This document shows, piece after piece, positions 1 to 14,423 of a stretch of 14,423 nt of DNA; within the stretch, counting starts at the first letter, position 1; each line of letters starts with the position of its first letter. Below the pieces are notes generated by a model, which saw nothing but the letters and a program-made list of their open reading frames with translations, did not search any database and was not told the origin of the DNA. Source of the stretch: Candidatus Thorarchaeota archaeon SMTZ1-45. GTDB taxonomy: Archaea; Asgardarchaeota; Thorarchaeia; Thorarchaeales; Thorarchaeaceae. Location: NCBI GenBank assembly GCA_001563335.1, contig LRSL01000084.1, positions 1 through 14,423 on the forward strand, read 5' to 3'. The translations under genes were made by a program, and so were the position numbers.

Positions 1-960
1 CCTGAGATAACACGGACTGTCTTTGGAGTTGGAGGGGGCGAAGCTGTTGACTTTGCAATAAAACTGGCACGAGGACATACAAAGAAACACAAGATCATCC
101 ATGCCACCTCTGCGTATCACGGACACACCGGCCTAGCACTCGCTGCAGGTGACGACCATTTCAAAGCCCCATTTGAACCACTAGCACCAGGATTTGTCGA
201 TGTGCCATTCGGTGATGCTGATGCAGTAGCTGCGGCGATAGATAGTGAAACTGCTGCGGTCATTTTCGAAACAATACCTGCCACGCTCGGGATGCCCATA
301 CCATCCAACGACTTCTATCCCAAAGTTCGAGAGATATGCGACGAGAAGGGAGTCCTTCTCATCTTAGATGAGATTCAGACAGGTCTCGGAAGGACTGGTA
401 AACTCTGGTGCTTTGAGCACTATGATATTGTGCCAGACATATTCACAATTGGTAAGGGTCTCTCGGGAGGGATATTTCCAATCACAGCCACATGCTATCG
501 AGAGGACCTTGATTATTTCATGAACGAGCACCCCTTCATCCATATATCCACATTCGGAGGAGCTGAGGTGGGCTGTCCAGTAGCAGCAAAGGTGCTTGAC
601 ATCACTTCAAAACAATCATTCTTAGAACACGTGAACCAAATAAGTGACAGTCTGAGCATGAAACTTGAAGGGATAAGAGAAGCGTATTCGGACGTCCTTC
701 TCGAGATCAGACGCAAGGGGCTCTTCATGGGACTCAAGATGAGTGATGTTGGCTATGGACCTCTCATGAGCATTGCTTCCTACAACTGCGGAGTCTTCGC
801 AGTCTACGCTGACAATGACCGTTCAGTCTTGCAGTTTCTCCCACCACTCATAATCAGAGAGGATGAGGTCCAGTATATTGATGATTCAATGCGGAAAGCA
901 TATGCATATGCAAAAGAACGACCAGACTACCTGGAACTAGCAAGGAATCTGGCAGCATAA
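1..960 (+). CDS. Class-III PLP-dependent aminotransferase family protein (acetylornithine/putrescine aminotransferase-like), 5'-truncated by the window edge
   Basis: Frame 1 is open from base 1 (PEITRTVFGVGGGEAVDFAIKLARGHTKKHKIIHATSAYHGHT...), so the ORF-track GTG at 202 is internal. Class-III motifs: GGEAVD..IKLAR, YHGHT, LILDEIQTGLGRTG, GKGLSGG (Schiff-base Lys codon 454-456), STFGG, GLFMGL, LQFLPPL. Stop TAA 958-960. Confidence 0.93.
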   Translation, partial: PEITRTVFGVGGGEAVDFAIKLARGHTKKHKIIHATSAYHGHTGLALAAGDDHFKAPFEPLAPGFVDVPFGDADAVAAAIDSETAAVIFETIPATLGMPIPSNDFYPKVREICDEKGVLLILDEIQTGLGRTGKLWCFEHYDIVPDIFTIGKGLSGGIFPITATCYREDLDYFMNEHPFIHISTFGGAEVGCPVAAKVLDITSKQSFLEHVNQISDSLSMKLEGIREAYSDVLLEIRRKGLFMGLKMSDVGYGPLMSIASYNCGVFAVYADNDRSVLQFLPPLIIREDEVQYIDDSMRKAYAYAKERPDYLELARNLAA

Positions 961-1944
961 ATGGAGGAGGAAATTGAGTTGAAAATAGACAAGGAACTTC
1001 TGAGGGAATTTGAAGAGGGACTAGACCCTCTAAAGCCGGAAGAATCTAAGATTCCAGCAAGAGTGCTTGGATATGGCGAGATCAGCACAGTTTTTGAGAT
1101 ACTCCATGAGGAGCAGTCTGATATTGCCTTCAAGAGAATGCCTCTTTTCGATAATATGGAACAGGTGGAGAGATACAGGGATGTCTATAATCGCTATCAT
1201 GACCGTTTCAAACAGATTGGAATAGATATTCCAGAATATGGATCAGTGGTGATTGAAACAGAGAAAGGGAGGATTGTGCTTTACCTGTATCAGAAGAAAC
1301 TACCGTCCGAGTCAATAGGAAACAGTATGATTCACCACATATCTGAAACAGGAGTGCACAATCTTGTTTCGACAATACTTGACCAACTCAACAAGGTCTG
1401 GGAGTTCAATAGACATGAGAGCCCTCATGCGGAGGTGGCGATAGATGGTCAAATATCAAACTGGGCTATTAGGAACTACATTCCAGATGCAGGAGATCCA
1501 CAGCTAGGGGAAGACCTGCTCTATCTAGACACAAGCACGCCCCTCTTCCGAGAGAATGGTGAAGAACAGCTAGATGTAGAACTGTTTCTAAAACCCACAC
1601 CGCCTGGAATCAGATGGTACCTCAAGAAGTACTACCTGCAAGACATTGTGGACCGATATTACGACTTCAGAAAGGTAGTCATTGATCTAGTTGCTAATTT
1701 CTTGAAGGAACAGCGGAGTGAGTTTGTACCCGGTCTGGTGGACTTGATTAACACCTACTTCTCAACAGAGGCGACTGATCAGGATGCTGAACCTATCACA
1801 GTCGAAGAGATTGAGGAATATTACAAGGATGATGCCTCCACATGGAAACTCTATCTGAGAATGCGAAAGGCGCATCGGTTCATCAAGACCAAAATATTGA
1901 GGGGCTATTATGCATACATACTGCCTGCTGACATTCAGAGGTGA
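961..1944 (+). CDS. Uncharacterised protein (DUF6206-like) with protein-kinase-like/phosphotransferase motifs
   Basis: 327-aa ORF whose ATG directly follows the upstream TAA. Motifs VLGYGEISTV, IAFKRMP, IDGQISNW and YLDTSTP occur in kinase order. The DUF6206 label is from recollection of the family pattern, not from a search. Confidence 0.8.
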   Translation: MEEEIELKIDKELLREFEEGLDPLKPEESKIPARVLGYGEISTVFEILHEEQSDIAFKRMPLFDNMEQVERYRDVYNRYHDRFKQIGIDIPEYGSVVIETEKGRIVLYLYQKKLPSESIGNSMIHHISETGVHNLVSTILDQLNKVWEFNRHESPHAEVAIDGQISNWAIRNYIPDAGDPQLGEDLLYLDTSTPLFRENGEEQLDVELFLKPTPPGIRWYLKKYYLQDIVDRYYDFRKVVIDLVANFLKEQRSEFVPGLVDLINTYFSTEATDQDAEPITVEEIEEYYKDDASTWKLYLRMRKAHRFIKTKILRGYYAYILPADIQR

Positions 1945-2825: not shown

Positions 2826-4283
2826 TTAGAACCATCGAGTGATAACTACTTTATCCTCTGTGAAGAACCTGATGGCATCAGTTCCTTGACCGTGTAGGTC
2901 TCCAAAGAATGAGTCCTTCATTCCAGAAAATGGAAAGTGAGCCACTGGAGCAGCGATGCCTATGTTGATTCCTATGTTGCCTGTTTGAACCTCATAGGTA
3001 AACTCTCTCGCCCATTTACCACTAGAGGTGAATATTGAGGATGCATTTCCATATGGGTTTGCATGGATTATCTTAATGGCTTCCTCATAGCTCTTTACTT
3101 TGATTATTGACATGACCGGACCAAAGATTTCCTCCTGAGCAATACCCATGTTAGGTTTGACATCATCAAAGATCGTTGGACCAACAAAGAATCCATTTGG
3201 ATGACCGTCAACCTTAACATCCCTACCATCCAGCAAGAGTGTTGCACCTTCCTTTAGTCCCCGTTCAATGAAGTCAATGGTCCTAGCCTTGGATTTTGCT
3301 GTGATCAGTGGGCCCATCTGCACTCCTTCTTCAAGCCCATTACCTACTCGGATCATCTTTGCCTTTTCAACCAACAGCTGGACCAATGGTTCATGAATCT
3401 CTTCCATTGCGAGAATCACAGCTCCAGCCAGACATCGTTCCCCAGCGCACCCATAGCATGATGTCATCAGTGCTGATGCAGTTCGCTCCAAGTCAGCATC
3501 AGGCATTACGAGTAGGAAGTTCTTTGCTCCAGCTTGAACTTGGGCTCGTTTGCCATGGGCTGCAGCTCGTTCGTATACAATCCTACCAACAGGAGTAGAC
3601 CCCACGAATGAAACACCCTTTGTTATCGGGCTATCCAATAGTGTATTTGCTGTTTCCACATCACCATGAACTAGATTTATGACACCTGGAGGAAAGCCAG
3701 ACTCATCAATCACCTCCGTTAACCTCACAGCACTAATTGGGGCTATTGGAGAAGGCTTCACGATGTAGGTGTTACCACAGGCAACAGCTGCTGGTAGGAA
3801 CCACAACGGCACCATGCTTGGGAAATTAAAAGGTGCTAGACAGAAGAAGACACCCATAGGTTGACGGAGTACAATCTCGTCAATTTCTGGGGCAACGTCT
3901 TCGGCGTTGTATCCCATCATCAACGAAGGTATGCCAGTCGCGACTTCTACATTTTCTATTCCACGCCTGATCTCACCACGTGCCTCATCTATTGTCTTTC
4001 CATTCTCGATTACAACCTGTCGAGCCAATTCTTCAAATTTCTCTTCCATGAGATTCTTCATTTCAAAGAAATACCTAGCACGTGTGATCGGAATAGTCCG
4101 TCTCCATCTAGGAAACGCTTTGTTGGCTGCTTGAATAGCCTCCTCAGTTTCGTCAACAGTACTCATAGGAACTTTGGCAATCAGTTCACCAGTCGCCGGG
4201 TTCAATACATCTCGAAGATTCTTTGAGCTGGACTCAACCCATTCACCATCGATGTAGTTCTTAAGTATGGGTACATCAGTCAT
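2826..4283 (-). CDS. mmsA: CoA-acylating (methyl)malonate-semialdehyde dehydrogenase (ALDH6/IolA family)
   Basis: 485 aa with PFNFPSMVPLWF, SFVGSTPVG, QAGAKNF (no general-base Glu, typical of CoA-acylating ALDHs), YGCAGERCLA (catalytic Cys), EEIFGPV, YGNASSIFT, FPFSGMKDSFFGDLHGQG and C-terminal RWF. Confidence 0.93.
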   Translation of the reverse strand: MTDVPILKNYIDGEWVESSSKNLRDVLNPATGELIAKVPMSTVDETEEAIQAANKAFPRWRRTIPITRARYFFEMKNLMEEKFEELARQVVIENGKTIDEARGEIRRGIENVEVATGIPSLMMGYNAEDVAPEIDEIVLRQPMGVFFCLAPFNFPSMVPLWFLPAAVACGNTYIVKPSPIAPISAVRLTEVIDESGFPPGVINLVHGDVETANTLLDSPITKGVSFVGSTPVGRIVYERAAAHGKRAQVQAGAKNFLLVMPDADLERTASALMTSCYGCAGERCLAGAVILAMEEIHEPLVQLLVEKAKMIRVGNGLEEGVQMGPLITAKSKARTIDFIERGLKEGATLLLDGRDVKVDGHPNGFFVGPTIFDDVKPNMGIAQEEIFGPVMSIIKVKSYEEAIKIIHANPYGNASSIFTSSGKWAREFTYEVQTGNIGINIGIAAPVAHFPFSGMKDSFFGDLHGQGTDAIRFFTEDKVVITRWF

Positions 4284-5159: not shown

Positions 5160-5558
5160 ATGGATGACACTCAGAGAGAAACACTGTTTCTGACAATTAA
5201 AGCTGTGATTGATGGTATCATTGCAGACAAGAGAGAGAATCCAAAGAACACCAAGAGATTGAACTCTTTCGAGGGCAGAATCAACATTGGACTCCATGTT
5301 GAAGAAGACGAGATAATGTGGATTAATCTAATAGCAAAGGATGGGGAATATACTGTCGGAAAAGACGCTCTTGAGGAACGGGACTTGGAACTGATTGCGG
5401 ACCCAGAGGATTTGATGTTTTTCTGCAATGGTCAATTTTCAGTCATGCATATGATGATGAAGCGAAACAGGTTTGGAGAGAGAAAACTGAGATTCAAGGG
5501 AAGAGCATATGGCAAACTTCTAGCATTGCCAAAGATATTGGTGTTGGACAAGAAATAA
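5160..5558 (+). CDS. Divergent SCP2 (sterol carrier protein 2)-like lipid-binding domain protein
   Basis: 132 aa with an SCP2-like layout: FEGRINIGL...WINLIAKDGEYTVG...DLELIADPEDLMFFCNGQFSVMHMMM...KLRFKG...KLLALPKIL. First gene of a tightly spaced run. Confidence 0.65.
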   Translation: MDDTQRETLFLTIKAVIDGIIADKRENPKNTKRLNSFEGRINIGLHVEEDEIMWINLIAKDGEYTVGKDALEERDLELIADPEDLMFFCNGQFSVMHMMMKRNRFGERKLRFKGRAYGKLLALPKILVLDKK

Positions 5559-5577
5559 CACATGAGAGGAATAGAAG

Positions 5578-6027
5578 ATGGTAAAATTTGGAACTCAAGA
5601 ATGGGCAGAACTAGTCATTGAAGCTATAAACTCGAATAAAGCCTATGCAAAGGCGGCGGACTGGTGGGAAGGTGACTTCATCTTTCAGATTGATCCATTT
5701 GGCGGATTAGATCATCAAATCAGAGTATGGGTAGGTCTATACCATGGGAAATGTACAGGTGCCCAGGTACTTAAAGAAGATGAGGAGTATAGACTTCTAG
5801 AGAAGGGAGAAAAGGCGTCAGGTCAACCGTTTGAAGCTGAGTTTGTGTATTCAGCGAGAATTGATGTATGGGAGAAGATTCTACGTAAGGAGTTGGATCC
5901 AATTCGAGCCTTGCTCTCTGGGCAGTCGAAGATTCAGGGTGATATGCCCAAAATCCTGCGGGCAACTGAAGCAGCCAAAGAACTCGTAGCGAGCGCGGCG
6001 ACCATAGAAACCGAGTTCTATGACTGA
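5578..6027 (+). CDS. SCP2 sterol/lipid-binding domain protein
   Basis: FGTQEW..V...IN.N..Y...A..WEGDFIF, LYHGKC and W..IL..ELDPIRALLSGQSKIQGDMPKILR...AAKELV match the prokaryotic stand-alone SCP2 pattern. GAGAGGA RBS upstream. Confidence 0.85.
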   Translation: MVKFGTQEWAELVIEAINSNKAYAKAADWWEGDFIFQIDPFGGLDHQIRVWVGLYHGKCTGAQVLKEDEEYRLLEKGEKASGQPFEAEFVYSARIDVWEKILRKELDPIRALLSGQSKIQGDMPKILRATEAAKELVASAATIETEFYD

Positions 6028-6067
6028 ATGAACAAAGGCCTACTATGAACACACGGATGGACATTAA

Positions 6068-7939
6068 ATGCTAAAGGGATACATGGGAAAGATACTACGA
6101 GTCAACTTAACTGATGGGACAATAACTGAAGAGTTTCCAGATGAGAACATACTCAAGATGTATTTAGGAGGAGCAGGACTCGCCACTTATTTTTTGATCA
6201 ATGAAACTGAGAAAGGAATAGACCCCTTAGGATCAGAGAACAAACTCATTGTCATGACTGGACCATTGACTGGGACACAGTCTCCGAGCGCTGGGCGATA
6301 TAGCGTTGTGGCCAAGTCGCCCTTGACGAATCTTTGGGGTCAGGCAAACTCAGCAGGATTCTGGGCTAAGGACTTCAAGAGGTCAGGCTTTGATGGCATC
6401 ATCTTTGAGGGGGCATCTCCCAATCCTGTGTATCTCTTGACAGAGGATGGAAAAGCGGAGTTATTAGATGCTACTGAGATATGGGGAAAGACAACTTCAG
6501 AAACTACTCGAATTTTGAAAGAAAAACACGGCGTTAAGCACAATGTTGCCTGTATTGGTCCTGCAGGGGAGAGGCTGGTAAAGTATGCAGCAATCATGAA
6601 TGACTGTGATGAGAAGTACTTTGGTCGTGCGGCTGGGAGATGTGGTCTAGGAAGTGTGATGGGTTCAAAGAACCTGAAGGCAATGGCAGCCTATGGGAAA
6701 GAAACAATCCCTATTGCAAATCCTGAAGAATATAGGATCGAGGCAAAGAAGAGATTCGACTGGGTCAACCAAAGCATGCTCAAGATGACACTGGAGGTCT
6801 ACGGTACAGCCACAATGGTCGACCTGTGTCAGGTTGTCGGAGGACTGCCAACTCGCAACTTCCAGACTGGTGTGTTTGAGGGTGCTGACAACATCAATGG
6901 CACAGCCCTGAACGATACAATACTTGCGGCTCGAAAGCCATGTTTTGCCTGTCCAATTGCCTGTGGTCGTATCGCGGAGATAAAGGAGGGCAAGTTCAAG
7001 AGCAGGGGAGAAGGTCCAGAGTATGAAACTATTGGTTCGTTTGGTAGTATGTGTGGGGTTGATGATCTTGAAGCAATCTCAATGGCTCACTTCCTCTGCA
7101 ATGAGTACGGTCTTGATGTAATTTCTGCTGGAAACTCAGTGGCTTTCGTCATGGAATGCTTCGAAAAGGGAATCATTACAAAGGAGGACACTGGTGGGAT
7201 AGAGTTCAAGTTTGGTGACAAGGATGTCATCGTAGATATTGTGCCTAAGATTGCTCTGCGTGAAGGTTTTGGTGATGTCATTGCAGAGGGAACCATGCGA
7301 ATGGCAGAGAAATTTGGGAAAGGTTCAGAACATTTTGCTATGCACGTCAAAGGACTTGAACTTCCTGCGTATGATAGTAGAGCTGCAAAAATCACAGGTT
7401 TGGCGTATGCCACTGCTAACAGAGGTGGGGATCATATCACAGCATGGATTGAAGGACCTGCCTTTCTCTCAATGCCATTCATGATTGTGGATGATGCTGA
7501 TGTGGGTGATGCACAAAAGGAAATTCCTGAAAAATCTGTTATACTGAAGGACTTTGAAGACGCGTTTCAGATCTTTGATGCAGTTGGTGCATGCAAATTC
7601 ATGGGCATTGTGATGACTGCTGATGACTGGGCTGTCTTATTGTCAAATCTAATGGGAATCGAATACTCTGCTACAGACTTCAGAAGGACAGGTGAAAGAA
7701 TCTATAACCTTGAGAGGGTCTACAATATTCGAGAGGGTGCCACACGAGAAGATGATACTCTTCCCCCGAGACTTTTGAAAGATCCGCTCCCAGAAGGTCC
7801 AGCCAAGGGACTGGTGGTCAATCTAGAACCCATGCTTGAGAGCTATTACGAGTTTCGGGGATGGGACCAAGATGGCAAGCCAACCAAGGAAAAACTGACA
7901 GAACTGGGGTTGGACTGGGCAATTAGCCAAATTTATTGA
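6068..7939 (+). CDS. aor: Aldehyde:ferredoxin oxidoreductase family protein (tungstopterin + [4Fe-4S])
   Basis: 623 aa with KSPLT, CIGPAGE, GRAAGRCGLGSVMGSKNLKA, CFACPIAC (Fe-S ligands), GPEYET, CNEYGLDVIS (DxxGLD-type motif), VKGLELPAYDSR, ANRGGDH, DAVGACKF (fourth Cys) and YYEFRGWD..G.PT.EKL..LGL. Confidence 0.95.
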   Translation: MLKGYMGKILRVNLTDGTITEEFPDENILKMYLGGAGLATYFLINETEKGIDPLGSENKLIVMTGPLTGTQSPSAGRYSVVAKSPLTNLWGQANSAGFWAKDFKRSGFDGIIFEGASPNPVYLLTEDGKAELLDATEIWGKTTSETTRILKEKHGVKHNVACIGPAGERLVKYAAIMNDCDEKYFGRAAGRCGLGSVMGSKNLKAMAAYGKETIPIANPEEYRIEAKKRFDWVNQSMLKMTLEVYGTATMVDLCQVVGGLPTRNFQTGVFEGADNINGTALNDTILAARKPCFACPIACGRIAEIKEGKFKSRGEGPEYETIGSFGSMCGVDDLEAISMAHFLCNEYGLDVISAGNSVAFVMECFEKGIITKEDTGGIEFKFGDKDVIVDIVPKIALREGFGDVIAEGTMRMAEKFGKGSEHFAMHVKGLELPAYDSRAAKITGLAYATANRGGDHITAWIEGPAFLSMPFMIVDDADVGDAQKEIPEKSVILKDFEDAFQIFDAVGACKFMGIVMTADDWAVLLSNLMGIEYSATDFRRTGERIYNLERVYNIREGATREDDTLPPRLLKDPLPEGPAKGLVVNLEPMLESYYEFRGWDQDGKPTKEKLTELGLDWAISQIY

Positions 7940-7969
7940 GCTGAAGTGTATCTATCTGAGTTGATTTCG

Positions 7970-9652
7970 ATGACAACATCGTATCAGGATAAACCATGGC
8001 TCAAGGCATATTTCTTGGGCCCCTACAAGTTGAAGCATTCAATGGAGCCTTATCCAGAGATCAATGTCTACTCTTTCTTGGAGGAGTCTGCGAGAGAATA
8101 TCCTGAGAACATCGCCTGTGTCTATGCAGATGAAGAGATGAACTACGAGGAGCTGAAGGACAAAGTAGACCGACTAGCATCAGCGTTTGTAGACCTAGGA
8201 GTAAGGAAAGGAGACCCTGTAGCCACAGTACTCCCCTCTTGTCCAGAGTTCATCATTGCAGACTATGCGTGTATGAAGATAGGAGCAATTCATGTGCCGC
8301 TGAGCATTCTTCACAAGGCAGATGACCTGTTACACGAGCTCAAGGAGAGTAAAGCGGAGGTTGTTGTCTGTTCCTATAGACGAGTCCCTCGAGTGAATGA
8401 AGTCAAACCCAAGACCGATGTAAAGAAAATAATCTATGCACCGACGAAGATTTTTCCAGACTACCAAGCCCCCGAAATGGAGGAGATCGCAGAGCCTGGT
8501 CACTATCTGTTGGAGGACCTGTTGAAAAAATACCAACCTCACTCTGAACATGTTGAGATCAACCCAAAGGAGGATATCGCCCTACTACCCTTTACGGGAG
8601 GTACGACAGGAGTTCCCAAGGGCACAATGTTGACCCATTACAATCTCACTTCCAATGTAGTCCAGACAATTCACTGGATGCTGGCTCCTCTTAAGGTGGG
8701 AGTTGCAGGGAAGGGAGCAACTACAATCTGCGTTCCGATATTCCATATGTATGGTCACTGGGCGGTTCATGCGAGTATCTCATGGGGACTGAAGATGTTC
8801 CTGATGGACCCGAGGGATGTAGTGAAGATTGTAGAGGTCATAAATGAGTACAGACCAGCAATGGTCTTTGCAGTACCAGCGCACTACAGCATGTTTTGTA
8901 GTATGCCTTTGAAGAAGGGACAGATATTCTACTACTCTGCAGCTGCAGGACTACCCCCAGAACTTGCAGAGGAGTTTGAGAAGATCTCTGGAGTTCCTAT
9001 GGGTGAGGGTTATGGCGCAACAGAAACCTCTGCAGCTGCTACTGTGAACATCTCTGCATTCTCCAAAGTGACTGGATTCATGAAACATGTGAAGCGTGGA
9101 GTTGGTGTCCCGTTGCCAGACACTGAGATTCGGGTTGTCGATCCTGAAACTGGGAAAGAACCTCCAGTGGGAGAACCCGGCGAGATATGGGTCAGAGGAC
9201 CTCAGATCATGGCAGGATATTGGCCAACACCAGGATCCGGATTGGAGGAAGATGGTTGGTTGAGGATGGGGGATATGGTGACCATGGATGATGATGGATA
9301 CTTCAAAGTGGTGGACCGAATTAAGGACATGATCAACGTTTCTGGCAATAAGGTGTATAGTCGGGTAATCGATGATATTCTCTACGAACATCCTGCAGTT
9401 GAAGTTGGAGGAGTGATTGGAGTACCAGACCCTGGCAGAAAGGGTAGCGAACGAGTCAAAGCTTTCATAAAACTAAGGCAAGAGTATAGGGGGAAAATCT
9501 CTGAGAAGGACATTATTGAGTATCTAAAAGACAAGGTCAAACCATACGCAGTACCGAAGTCTGTAGAATTCAGAGATGAACTCCCACTCACCCTCATAAT
9601 GAAGCTCCACAAGAAGAAACTGAGAGATGATGAGCTTGCCAAACAATCCTAG
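7970..9652 (+). CDS. AMP-forming acyl-CoA ligase (long-chain-fatty-acid-CoA ligase-like, ANL superfamily)
   Basis: P-loop FTGGTTGVPKG, GYGATE, GEIWVRGPQIMAGYW, GWLRMGD, VVDRIKDMINVSGNKV and C-terminal FRDELPLTLIMKLHK. ATG 7970 preferred; GTG 7946 is an alternative start. Confidence 0.92.
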   Translation: MTTSYQDKPWLKAYFLGPYKLKHSMEPYPEINVYSFLEESAREYPENIACVYADEEMNYEELKDKVDRLASAFVDLGVRKGDPVATVLPSCPEFIIADYACMKIGAIHVPLSILHKADDLLHELKESKAEVVVCSYRRVPRVNEVKPKTDVKKIIYAPTKIFPDYQAPEMEEIAEPGHYLLEDLLKKYQPHSEHVEINPKEDIALLPFTGGTTGVPKGTMLTHYNLTSNVVQTIHWMLAPLKVGVAGKGATTICVPIFHMYGHWAVHASISWGLKMFLMDPRDVVKIVEVINEYRPAMVFAVPAHYSMFCSMPLKKGQIFYYSAAAGLPPELAEEFEKISGVPMGEGYGATETSAAATVNISAFSKVTGFMKHVKRGVGVPLPDTEIRVVDPETGKEPPVGEPGEIWVRGPQIMAGYWPTPGSGLEEDGWLRMGDMVTMDDDGYFKVVDRIKDMINVSGNKVYSRVIDDILYEHPAVEVGGVIGVPDPGRKGSERVKAFIKLRQEYRGKISEKDIIEYLKDKVKPYAVPKSVEFRDELPLTLIMKLHKKKLRDDELAKQS

Positions 9653-12875: not shown

Positions 12876-13901
12876 ATGACAGCACCATTTAGAGTGATAC
12901 AGATTGGATTCGGGTCGCTTGGCCGTCATATTACTGCGTCTATTTTAAGACGAGCAAACCTTGAGCTTGTTGCAGTGGTGGATGCCAATCCAGAATTAGC
13001 AGGCAAGACCATCAAGGAACTACTTCAAGATGAAACTGATAGTGATATCTCAATGGCTGATGATCTACATACAATTTTGAGGTATGTCCCTGCAGACGTT
13101 GCTCTAGTAGCAACCTCCTCGTCGCTTGAAACCGTTTATCCCACGATAGTGGCATGCCTTGAGTCTGGTTTAGATGTGGTTTCAATCTGTGAAGAACTCT
13201 CATATCCATATAAGAAGAGTCCTGAGCTCTCAAGGAAACTGGACCTAGTTGCCAAAGAAAAAGGGAAGACAGTCGTTGGGACTGGCATCAACCCTGGATA
13301 TCTAATGGACCTACTTCCGATTGTTCTCACCGCCCCATGTCAGATAATAGAAACCATTCATGTGACTCGTCATATGAACTCAAGCCATAGGAGACCATCG
13401 TTCCAGAAGAAGATTGGAACTAGCATGACAAATGAGGAGTTCAGAAGGAACATTGATGAGGGCAACATCACTGGTCATGTAGGACTTGTCGAGTCAATCC
13501 AGATGATAGACGCAGCACTTAATCTGGGATTGGATGAGATTGAGGAGCTACCTCCTGAGGCGGTCATAGCAAAAAGAGAAGTCACAAACTCCTTCACAAC
13601 CATTCAGAAAGGAGATGTCCTTGGTCTCACGAGTGTGGCTGTGGGAAAAAGGAATGGAGAGGTAGTAGTCACTCTTGACTTTCAAGCGTATGCAGAAGCA
13701 ACACCACAGTACGATGAGGTCATCATAGAGGGGCTTCCCAGGATACATCAGAGAATTGAGGGAGGAGTCCAGGGAGACCAGGGAACAATCGGTATGCTGC
13801 TGAACCTAATCCCAATCGTGATCAGCGAGTCACCAGGCCTCAAGACCATGAAAGACCTACCAGTTCCAAGAAACACGATGCGATTCTGGAAAGAAAACTA
13901 G
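12876..13901 (+). CDS. NAD(P)-dependent amine dehydrogenase family protein (2,4-diaminopentanoate dehydrogenase Ord / native AmDH-like; DapB-type N-terminal Rossmann fold)
   Basis: VIQIGFGSLG (GxGxxG), VVSICEELSYP, GTGINPGYLMDLLP, RRPSFQKKIG, TGHVGLVES and GGVQGDQGT. Confidence 0.85.
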   Translation: MTAPFRVIQIGFGSLGRHITASILRRANLELVAVVDANPELAGKTIKELLQDETDSDISMADDLHTILRYVPADVALVATSSSLETVYPTIVACLESGLDVVSICEELSYPYKKSPELSRKLDLVAKEKGKTVVGTGINPGYLMDLLPIVLTAPCQIIETIHVTRHMNSSHRRPSFQKKIGTSMTNEEFRRNIDEGNITGHVGLVESIQMIDAALNLGLDEIEELPPEAVIAKREVTNSFTTIQKGDVLGLTSVAVGKRNGEVVVTLDFQAYAEATPQYDEVIIEGLPRIHQRIEGGVQGDQGTIGMLLNLIPIVISESPGLKTMKDLPVPRNTMRFWKEN

Positions 13902-13918
13902 AATGGAGGAACAATAGT

Positions 13919-14423
13919 ATGCTTGAACGCTACAATGCAAGAACCTCAAAATCGGAAACACTTTGGAAGAGTGCAGTCACTCTGTTTCCAGGGGGCGTGA
14001 GTCACAATATTAGGACTTTTGGAATGCCTGGATGCAATTCATACCCACCCTACATTAGTCATGGTCAAAGGGCACACATCTGGGACGTCGATGGGAACGA
14101 GTATATCGACTGGTGGATGACCCATTACTCACTCCTTCTCGGACATAATGATCCTTTTGTGAGAGAGGCGATCAGCGACCAGTTAGAAGCAGGATATCAC
14201 TTTGGAACTCCGACCGAACCTGAGGTAAAGTATGGTGAGAGACTCAAGGAGGCAGTACCACTGCTTGAGAAGATGAGGTTCACTGCCTCAGGTGGAGAAT
14301 CGACTATGTACGCTGTTCGATTGGCAAGGCTGTTCACAAAGAGGAAACTCGTAGGCAAGTCCTTGGGTGGATGGCACGGGGGGAACGATGCACTCACCTA
14401 TCATATGAGCCATCCCTATATAG
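13919..14423 (+). CDS. Glutamate-1-semialdehyde aminomutase-like class-III aminotransferase, 3'-truncated by the window edge
   Basis: Absent from the ORF track because no stop lies in the window. GGAGGA RBS at 13905-13910, ATG 13919. Reads MLERYNARTSKSETLWKSAVTLFPGGVSHNIR...WDVDGNEYID...LLLGH...MRFTASGGESTMYAVRLARLFTKR...GGWHGG. Confidence 0.9.
   Translation, partial: MLERYNARTSKSETLWKSAVTLFPGGVSHNIRTFGMPGCNSYPPYISHGQRAHIWDVDGNEYIDWWMTHYSLLLGHNDPFVREAISDQLEAGYHFGTPTEPEVKYGERLKEAVPLLEKMRFTASGGESTMYAVRLARLFTKRKLVGKSLGGWHGGNDALTYHMSHPYI

Follow-up and report, generated by a model that had tools for sequence, protein, structure and literature searches.

DUF6206, a predicted protein-kinase-like family linked to an unusual class-III PLP enzyme in Archaea and Bacteria

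We analyzed the first 14,423 bases of contig C84 of the Asgard archaeon Candidatus Thorarchaeota archaeon SMTZ1-45 (this whole stretch is called the window below), focusing on the gene at positions 961-1944, a member of the protein family DUF6206, and on the gene immediately upstream of it, here called the partner, which encodes a class-III-fold enzyme dependent on pyridoxal 5'-phosphate (PLP). The source genome is 3.5 Mb in size and 88% complete, the closest protein relatives come from Thorarchaeota/Sifarchaeia-type Asgard archaea, and the sequencing runs with matching DNA are labelled as marine sediment and seawater metagenomes, with no RNA run listed. The features on which the argument turns are as follows.

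1..960, plus strand: partner PLP gene, 3' part (residues 109-427), class-III-fold 'ETIPAT' subfamily (Pfam Aminotran_3, E 9e-67)
961..1944, plus strand: DUF6206 open reading frame (ORF), predicted protein-kinase-like enzyme, 327 amino acids from ATG 961, stop codon TGA at 1942-1944
964..971, plus strand: GGAGGAGG, likely ribosome-binding site for the alternative start TTG 979-981, from the junction alignment with 7 relatives
1066..1086, plus strand: Gly-rich loop LGYGEIS, residues 36-42, between predicted beta1 (33-38) and beta2 (43-47)
1132..1137, plus strand: K58-R59 (motif AFK, K58 codon 1132-1134), in predicted strand beta3 (55-63)
1282..1293, plus strand: hinge at the end of beta5, Y108-L-Y-Q111 (within LYLYQ, residues 107-111), in predicted strand 105-112
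1444..1464, plus strand: catalytic loop D162-G-Q-I-S-N167-W168, between predicted beta6 (157-159) and beta7 (168-170)
1528..1542, plus strand: D190-T-S-T-P194 (motif YLD, D190 codon 1528-1530), directly after predicted beta8 (186-188)

The ORF at 961-1944 matched the Pfam family DUF6206 (PF19709) over residues 35-306 with an E-value of 1e-24 and a score of 87.6 bits, against a curated cut-off of 30.4. This bears out an earlier note on this DNA, made from the sequence alone, which had described an uncharacterized DUF6206-like protein. No Pfam family besides DUF6206 was found for this ORF at E <= 0.01, and no NCBIfam model matched it. The family forms 2,143 clusters when grouped at 90% identity and is covered by 566 representatives at 50%, and a search of the literature, outside of which lie supplementary files and unindexed papers, returned no paper mentioning DUF6206 or PF19709.

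The junction between the two genes deserves a closer description, as the earlier note had placed them at zero spacing. The ATG at 961-963 indeed follows directly on the partner's stop codon, TAA at 958-960; the spacer itself may nevertheless be 18 nucleotides (nt) long. When the junction was aligned with those of 7 close relatives, their ATG start codons fell opposite TTG 979 of the window, and the GGAGG-type site that lies between the stop codon and the ATG in these relatives corresponded to GGAGGAGG at 964-971. The nearest homologues, moreover, are mostly 321 rather than 327 amino acids long, which is the length that the window protein would have if it started at TTG 979. The aligned starts and the 321-residue homologues therefore suggest that TTG 979 may be the true start, and the zero spacing may be an artefact of choosing the first ATG. 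With either start the two genes are tightly coupled, and in related loci of the same gene order the intergenic gaps range from -7 to 57 nt.

The partner gene is truncated only by the contig end, that is, by the assembly. Positions 1-94 of the window are identical to the final 94 nt of another contig of this genome, C28 (L086, G000:C28, 7667-7760), and since these ends are identical, the two contigs join here and the partner gene is whole. Contig C28 supplies its first 108 codons, with the start at C28:7343, for a total of 427 codons and a protein of 427 amino acids. Upstream of this start lie about 830 nt of non-coding DNA and then a divergent M28 peptidase gene, beyond which contig C28 carries a family-2 glycosyltransferase and a polysaccharide deacetylase.

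Reading the translation by eye, the earlier note had picked out a kinase-like series of motifs in the DUF6206 protein. All five (LGYGEIS, AFK, LYLYQ, DGQISN at residues 162-167 and positions 1444-1461, and YLD) lie where it had placed them, in the translation as in the raw sequence. We counted their conservation in 88 DUF6206 representatives that are 26-62% identical to the window protein. Within the Gly-rich loop, G39 is invariant (88/88) and E40 (81/88), S42 (76/88) and G37 (74/88) are frequent. K58, at the position of the kinase ATP-binding lysine, is found in 87/88 sequences, as is the adjacent R59. In the hinge, Q111 is present in all 88 and Y108 in 80. The catalytic loop retains D162 and N167 in 87/88 each, S166 and W168 in 85/88 each and Q164 in 81/88, and D190, at the position of the metal-binding aspartate of the kinase DFG motif, occurs in 87/88, together with P194 (87/88) and T193 (76/88). 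The lysine, aspartate, asparagine and aspartate (K58, D162, N167 and D190), for which conservation among homologues had been anticipated, are thus each kept in 87 of the 88, and because all these motifs are conserved in 88 diverse representatives, they are not the product of chance. The C-terminal helical part also holds many invariant polar residues (R232, Y233, D242, N246, K249, E250, D291, R302 and R327).

A structural model of the DUF6206 protein, predicted by AlphaFold2 from the 88-sequence alignment, reached a mean predicted local distance difference test (pLDDT) score of 95.7 and a predicted template modelling (pTM) score of 0.92. Its elements follow one another in the order of a protein-kinase-like fold: two short predicted strands round the Gly-rich loop, the strand bearing K58, a long helix, two strands ending at Q111, another long helix, a short strand, the loop from D162 to N167, two single strands and then D190, after which the C-terminal part is helical. 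A Foldseek search of the PDB with this model gave 90 matches at E <= 0.001, and among the matches listed (to rank 50) all were kinase or pseudokinase chains, with TM-scores of only 0.26-0.40. An exhaustive alignment, independent of Foldseek, returned 115 of 48,161 representative chains at Z >= 8, again with kinases in the lead. These included Bud32 (Z 11.3, root-mean-square deviation (rmsd) 4.0, 189 residues aligned), the aminopropanol kinase 6EF6 (Z 11.1, rmsd 4.9, 220 residues aligned, model residues 12-327), the amicoumacin kinase 6SUM (Z 11.0), the N-acetylhexosamine kinase 4OCJ (Z 10.7) and Rv3168 (Z 10.6); WaaP, a macrolide phosphotransferase and the choline kinase LicA were also among the leading structural matches. 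In a second structural comparison, human PRPK ranked first (Z 12.1, rmsd 4.4, 204 residues aligned, 16% identity). A feature search of the ESM Atlas likewise gave kinase-type clusters only, all with scores below 0.9, to be taken as leads only. The kinase-like fold proposed in the earlier note is thereby upheld: we regard it as certain that the fold, as modelled, is protein-kinase-like and, judged by this model, DUF6206 is a kinase-like family in its own right, whose catalytic set is complete and conserved.

The linkage of DUF6206 with the class-III PLP gene was surveyed in two directions. A forward scan with a 20-sequence query covered prokaryotic species at one genome each and confirmed 488 DUF6206 loci, of which the best 80 were inspected. 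In 67 of the 80, DUF6206 has a class-III PLP gene next to it on the same strand, with the PLP gene first in 46 and DUF6206 first in 21; with the window and three loci from related genomes added, adjacency stands at 70/84. The hosts span Asgard archaea, Archaeoglobi, Chloroflexota, Actinomycetota, deltaproteobacterial lineages and others. A reverse scan was anchored on the partner PLP enzyme in metagenome contigs. Here DUF6206 adjoins the partner, on the same strand, in 69/80 loci (the best 80 of 591 confirmed), and 9 of the 11 loci that do not show it end less than 400 nt from the PLP gene on one side. Within the window's genus, a close orthologue of the partner, 82-100% identical to the L006 enzyme, was detected in G000, G008, G013 and G021, with DUF6206 present in G000, G008 and G021 and the contig of G013 ending 13 nt past the partner gene. 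The linkage is thus very strong in both directions, as the earlier note would require, and it ties DUF6206 to one PLP subfamily in Archaea and Bacteria alike. A prediction of the complex between the L006 partner and the L006 DUF6206 protein scored 0.00 twice against a mark of 0.32; as controls were not folded, it is uninformative on binding.

What sets the partner apart is its active site. Its best solved relative is the Escherichia coli putrescine aminotransferase YgjG/PatA (PDB 4UOX, E 1e-64), which it matches over residues 13-424, including the YgjG-type N-terminal extension. The putrescine aminotransferase model NF008570 (NCBIfam) scores the partner at 213-311 bits against a cut-off of 612, and all other NCBIfam matches also fall far below their cut-offs. 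Residues were counted in 70 linked sequences, one of which is gapped at most counted columns, and are numbered here as in L006. The PLP lysine, K263, is kept in 69/70, as are D234 and Q237 of the DE(I/V)QTG motif, all three shared with YgjG. By contrast, the EPIQGEGG of YgjG is replaced in the partner subfamily by ETIPATxG, in which the E, T, P, A, T and final G columns are each conserved in 69/70 and the third column is I or V, so that the second glutamate of the YgjG motif has become threonine in 69/70. Similarly, the arginine of the YgjG motif IRIEPPL is glutamine in 64/70, and lysine in Heimdall-type copies, within the partner motif (V)xQ(L/F)LPPL. The window partner itself carries the signatures ETIPATLG and SVLQFLPPL, whereas canonical class-III paralogues in the same genomes keep EPIQGE(A/G)G and IRFAPPL. 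Judged by these motifs, the partner belongs to a distinct subfamily, 'ETIPAT', nearest to putrescine aminotransferase.

The altered positions are those expected to matter for the co-substrate. In ornithine and gamma-aminobutyrate (GABA) aminotransferases, the second glutamate of EPIQGE(G/A)G and the arginine before PPL form a 'glutamate switch', which allows the binding first of a terminal amine and then of glutamate or 2-oxoglutarate. In the partner, a histidine ('YHGHT', 68/70) also stands at the position of an 'HG(R/K)(T/S)' motif, which we take to be that of R141 of GABA aminotransferase. R398 and R141 of the latter enzyme are named as carboxylate-related arginines in PMC9309667, and a 'glutamate switch' paper is cited in the reference list of PMC6698932. 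An enzyme that has lost the Glu-Arg switch residues would be unlikely to act as an ordinary 2-oxoglutarate-dependent transaminase, and the partner looks like a working PLP enzyme that may have given up its keto-acid co-substrate site.

Because DUF6206 nearly always adjoins this one unusual PLP enzyme, the pair probably phosphorylates and then breaks down an amine-bearing metabolite. The reading that we prefer, and to which we assign about even chances, is of a two-gene unit in which an active, ATP-dependent small-molecule phosphotransferase of the protein-kinase-like (PKL) fold works with a PLP enzyme that eliminates phosphate and releases ammonia. The DUF6206 kinase would phosphorylate a hydroxyl group of a small metabolite bearing a primary amine. 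The PLP enzyme, which may be unable to hold a 2-oxo-acid co-substrate in the usual way, would bind the amine as an aldimine and remove the phosphate and the amino group, so that ammonia, phosphate and a carbonyl compound are left. The analyses above directly support four elements of this reading: the kinase fold of the model, the conservation of the catalytic residues, the nearly obligate pairing and the changes in the PLP active site. ATP would be the donor, the substrate would be a small amino alcohol, possibly freed by an amide hydrolase, and phosphorylation would come before elimination. The earlier note had proposed a new amino-alcohol kinase/phospho-lyase (or transaminase) module. This proposal is supported in part: its kinase fold, its K/D/N/D set and its linkage stand, and the amino-alcohol substrate and the phospho-lyase chemistry are inferred.

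Several observations weigh against this reading, and they concern the kinase, the linkage, the neighbourhood and the PLP enzyme in turn. The first is that kinase relationship is not visible in sequence comparisons. A phmmer search of PDB sequences with the DUF6206 protein returned noise only (best E 0.12, a potassium channel), as did a profile of 88 homologues (best E 0.019, a deacylase), and Pfam and NCBIfam scans of the protein gave no kinase family. In the Pfam scan there was no match to PF00069 or PF07714, the eukaryotic-type Ser/Thr/Tyr protein kinases, nor to the APH/choline-kinase family model PF01636. 'Cryptic', the word used in the earlier note, is therefore a fair description, since sequence and profile searches find no kinase. 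In addition, the glutamate of helix C with which the beta3 lysine pairs in most kinases is poorly kept: in the best candidate column, E68 occurs in only 46/88, and the window protein has Q there, with E70 nearby. Both the poorly kept glutamate and the invisibility to sequence methods would suit a catalytically dead pseudokinase that serves as a scaffold or ligand-binding subunit. We consider this highly improbable, as Lys, catalytic Asp, Asn and metal-binding Asp are each retained in 87/88; it is because this set persists among sequences only 26-62% identical that the pattern resembles that of an active enzyme.

The second point is the identity of the top structural scorers. PRPK and Bud32 are protein-directed atypical kinases or ATPases, and because the leading Z values differ by no more than about 1, no kinase subfamily is singled out. 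DUF6206 could accordingly belong with atypical protein kinases or ATPases such as Bud32 and RIO, and could serve to modify, activate or assemble the PLP partner, a reading which would also suit the near-obligate pairing without a fixed third gene and the Z values of the RIO kinases (9.6-9.9). PRPK and Bud32, which represent the atypical kinase of the KEOPS complex, act on or within a protein complex, and they share with DUF6206 a compact kinase core without a long activation segment. However, they are only about 210-230 residues long, lack the C-terminal helical region of DUF6206 (290-327) and align only to about residue 290, whereas the small-molecule kinases, which tie with PRPK in Z, align over the whole model (10-327 versus 10-290). 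In the model, moreover, the C-terminal helical part with its invariant polar residues appears to resemble the substrate-binding lobe of APH and choline kinases in length and position. Five genomes (G032 and G304-G307) carry both genes unlinked, an arrangement that suits a metabolic link equally with a physical one. Overall, we judge a protein-directed role improbable, and return to a small-molecule kinase as the preferred reading.

The exceptions to the linkage form the third point. Among the DUF6206-anchored loci of the forward scan, 13 do not show an adjacent partner. Five of these are cut close to the gene, and in the other eight the adjacent PLP gene is absent despite room on either side (L030, L052, L063, L066, L068, L069, L079 and L082). 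Similarly, L141 and L154 in the reverse scan have room yet do not show DUF6206, and one further genome (G308) showed canonical class-III enzymes only. An ETIPAT-type enzyme is nonetheless encoded 10 kb upstream of DUF6206 in G032 and 3.2 kb upstream in L082, and elsewhere in the genome in 4/5 further non-adjacent genomes searched (G304-G307). No other kinase gene was found to stand in for DUF6206 beside the ETIPAT enzymes examined that do not have it (the neighbour is a porin in L141, and an M28 peptidase and an amidohydrolase in L133).

Some of these exceptions have contexts of their own. In L141 (2995-5642), where the ETIPAT-type gene has room on either side, the next gene downstream, 11 nt further on, encodes a phosphate-selective porin of the OprO/P family. 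In four loci of Heimdall-, Hod- and Hermodarchaeota type (L052, L063, L066 and L068), DUF6206 stands apart from the partner, and the conserved block to which it belongs also comprises a DNA methylase, a small ORF, a RuBisCO-like protein and an enolase-superfamily gene. In these genomes the ETIPAT enzyme carries lysine instead of glutamine at the position of the lost arginine.

The fourth point is the lack of a constant neighbourhood. Operon partners were counted over 134 paired loci, and none of the transporters, regulators or other enzymes nearby accompanies the pair consistently, the maximum being 9 loci. The most frequent were these.

FMN (flavin mononucleotide) reductase, the most frequent operon partner: 9/134 paired loci
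Penicillin-amidase-family acylase (best solved relative D-succinylase): 7/134 paired loci
Protein of 420-440 amino acids with a weak peptidase-C69 match: 7/134 paired loci
M28 peptidase: 6/134 paired loci
S-adenosylhomocysteine (SAH) hydrolase: 6/134 paired loci
Glycerate-kinase-like protein: 5/134 paired loci

S-adenosylmethionine (SAM) synthetase and a phosphomutase lie beside the pair in 4 loci each. Since no third gene is conserved with the pair, no particular substrate is indicated. The three unrelated kinds of amide hydrolase nevertheless total about 20/134 paired loci which, together with the M28 peptidase in the window's genome, gives a weak hint that an amide is the source of the pair's substrate. 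The richest context encountered, which may be the best one for guessing the substrate, is a fixed operon in Dehalococcoidia-type loci (L025, L034, L042, L053 and L056), which consists of two penicillin-amidase-family genes, DUF169, FMN reductase, the PLP enzyme and DUF6206; a gene of the HpaB/4-hydroxybutyryl-CoA-dehydratase family follows DUF6206 in L025, L034 and L056, not in L042 and L053. A role in methionine salvage was considered and set aside, as the neighbours that prompted the idea (SAH hydrolase, SAM synthetase and RuBisCO-like genes) occur in single lineages only.

The last point concerns the chemistry of the partner. Its closest characterized relatives are true transaminases (after YgjG come acetylornithine/ornithine aminotransferases, at E 1e-55 to 1e-52), and no chain named as a phospho-lyase was found among its best 60 PDB matches. 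The kinase could thus be coupled to a genuine transaminase in biosynthesis or salvage, with the amino group moved to or from a carboxylate-free aldehyde or ketone and no elimination. The kinase would then phosphorylate whatever the PLP enzyme consumes or produces, such as an amino sugar, a polyamine derivative or a cofactor precursor. Consistent with this, the nearest relatives act on terminal amines (YgjG, the aminotransferase domain of PigE and acetylornithine aminotransferase), the PLP lysine, D234 and Q237 are intact, and SAH hydrolase (6), SAM synthetase (4) and phosphomutase (4 loci) look more salvage-like or biosynthetic than catabolic. These neighbours, however, occur in one bacterial group only, the pair is mostly a stand-alone two-gene unit, and with both halves of the Glu-Arg switch and the distal arginine replaced, the partner has no recognizable site for an amino- or keto-acid carboxylate. 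We therefore regard a transaminase as a serious but unlikely alternative to the preferred kinase and phosphate-eliminating pair.

Comparison with known systems places this preferred reading among precedents. One that is similar in both fold and gene pairing is 6EF6, an (S)-1-amino-2-propanol kinase of the mycobacterial aminoacetone/aminopropanol microcompartment, whose fold is matched over the whole DUF6206 model. This kinase presumably works with a class-III-fold phospho-lyase, and would thus be paired with a PLP gene as DUF6206 is; in that system the hydroxyl would be phosphorylated so that the PLP enzyme can eliminate it. At 6% identity in the structural alignment, DUF6206 nevertheless has no sequence-level relation to 6EF6, and its partner falls in a YgjG/ArgD-like branch. 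H-x-D-x4-N is the catalytic motif of APH and choline kinases, and DUF6206 differs from 6EF6 in having G or A in place of its His: the residue two before D162 is G in 59/88 or A in 22/88, and H is absent from the four commonest residues.

The hydroxylysine and ethanolamine routes offer a second precedent. Veiga-da-Cunha et al. (2012) are said to have described hydroxylysine kinase and 5-phosphohydroxylysine phospho-lyase, as well as ethanolamine-phosphate phospho-lyase. In these routes, a kinase acts first and a class-III PLP lyase then yields an aldehyde, ammonia and phosphate, and by analogy the DUF6206 pair may follow the same logic. The hydroxylysine and ethanolamine kinases are members of the APH or choline-kinase families, whereas DUF6206 matches neither family model. 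In PMC8154272, phospho-lyases of the ETNPPL/PHYKPL type are presented as the only documented lyases of their kind in the class-III group, and its text and reference list indicate that the paper identifying class-III phospho-lyases also identified hydroxylysine kinase. The concept of a kinase joined to a class-III-fold lyase is thus already known. What is new is a kinase-like family unseen by sequence methods and a partner lineage whose nearest relatives are putrescine and acetylornithine aminotransferases and whose best 60 solved relatives include no known phospho-lyase.

The distribution of DUF6206 is patchy. It was found in 70/301 sampled genomes of the archaeal phylum, where it is confined to 4/30 families, in 2/24 other genomes of the window's genus, and in several bacterial phyla. 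The family also varies in architecture. Long forms of about 500 amino acids (P0174, P0176, P0180, P0187, P0196, P0200, P0216 and P0221) carry an N-terminal extension of about 200 residues, with motifs common to the four sequences read (P0176, P0180, P0200 and P0216). No convincing Pfam match was found in the extensions of these eight, P0174 giving one weak DUF2007 match under the cut-off. In P0241, the first half of a beta-keto acid cleavage enzyme (BKACE) is joined to a DUF6206 part without the N-lobe; it is probably a broken or chimeric gene call, not a true fusion.

Annotated genes in the remainder of the window include the following.

2826-4283: CoA-acylating methylmalonate-semialdehyde dehydrogenase, on the strand opposite to the aldehyde:ferredoxin oxidoreductase block
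6068-7939: aldehyde:ferredoxin oxidoreductase
7946-9652: acyl-CoA synthetase
12876-13901: 2,4-diaminopentanoate-dehydrogenase-like gene (NCBIfam 275 bits, under the cut-off of 400)
13919-14422: glutamate-1-semialdehyde-aminomutase-like class-III gene, starting 17 nt later and continuing past the window end

Within 5160-9652, two small SCP2-like ORFs, both under the Pfam cut-off, lie ahead of the aldehyde:ferredoxin oxidoreductase gene. Genes of aldehyde metabolism are abundant in this region, and none of them is conserved beside the DUF6206/PLP pair in other genomes. The 2,4-diaminopentanoate-dehydrogenase-like and aminomutase-like genes could form a diamino-acid fermentation pair, unrelated to the ETIPAT subfamily.

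Our analysis turns two generic annotations, DUF6206 and PLP enzyme, into one concrete and testable hypothesis. If it is correct, the kinase-like superfamily would gain a new family, and a second, independently evolved lineage of non-transaminating class-III PLP enzymes would come to light. A bolder version, which we advance tentatively and hold to be possible though rather doubtful, is that the pair forms an undescribed catabolic module that has been exchanged between anaerobic Archaea and Bacteria. Such a module would combine a new kinase, an amino alcohol freed by an amide hydrolase and a phospho-lyase that would split the phosphorylated compound into a carbonyl product, ammonia and phosphate. 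This lyase would derive from the putrescine/acetylornithine-aminotransferase branch and have an origin separate from that of the animal and actinobacterial phospho-lyases. If this version is true, it would provide sediment anaerobes, Asgard archaea included, with a cobalamin-independent way of using amines of this kind.

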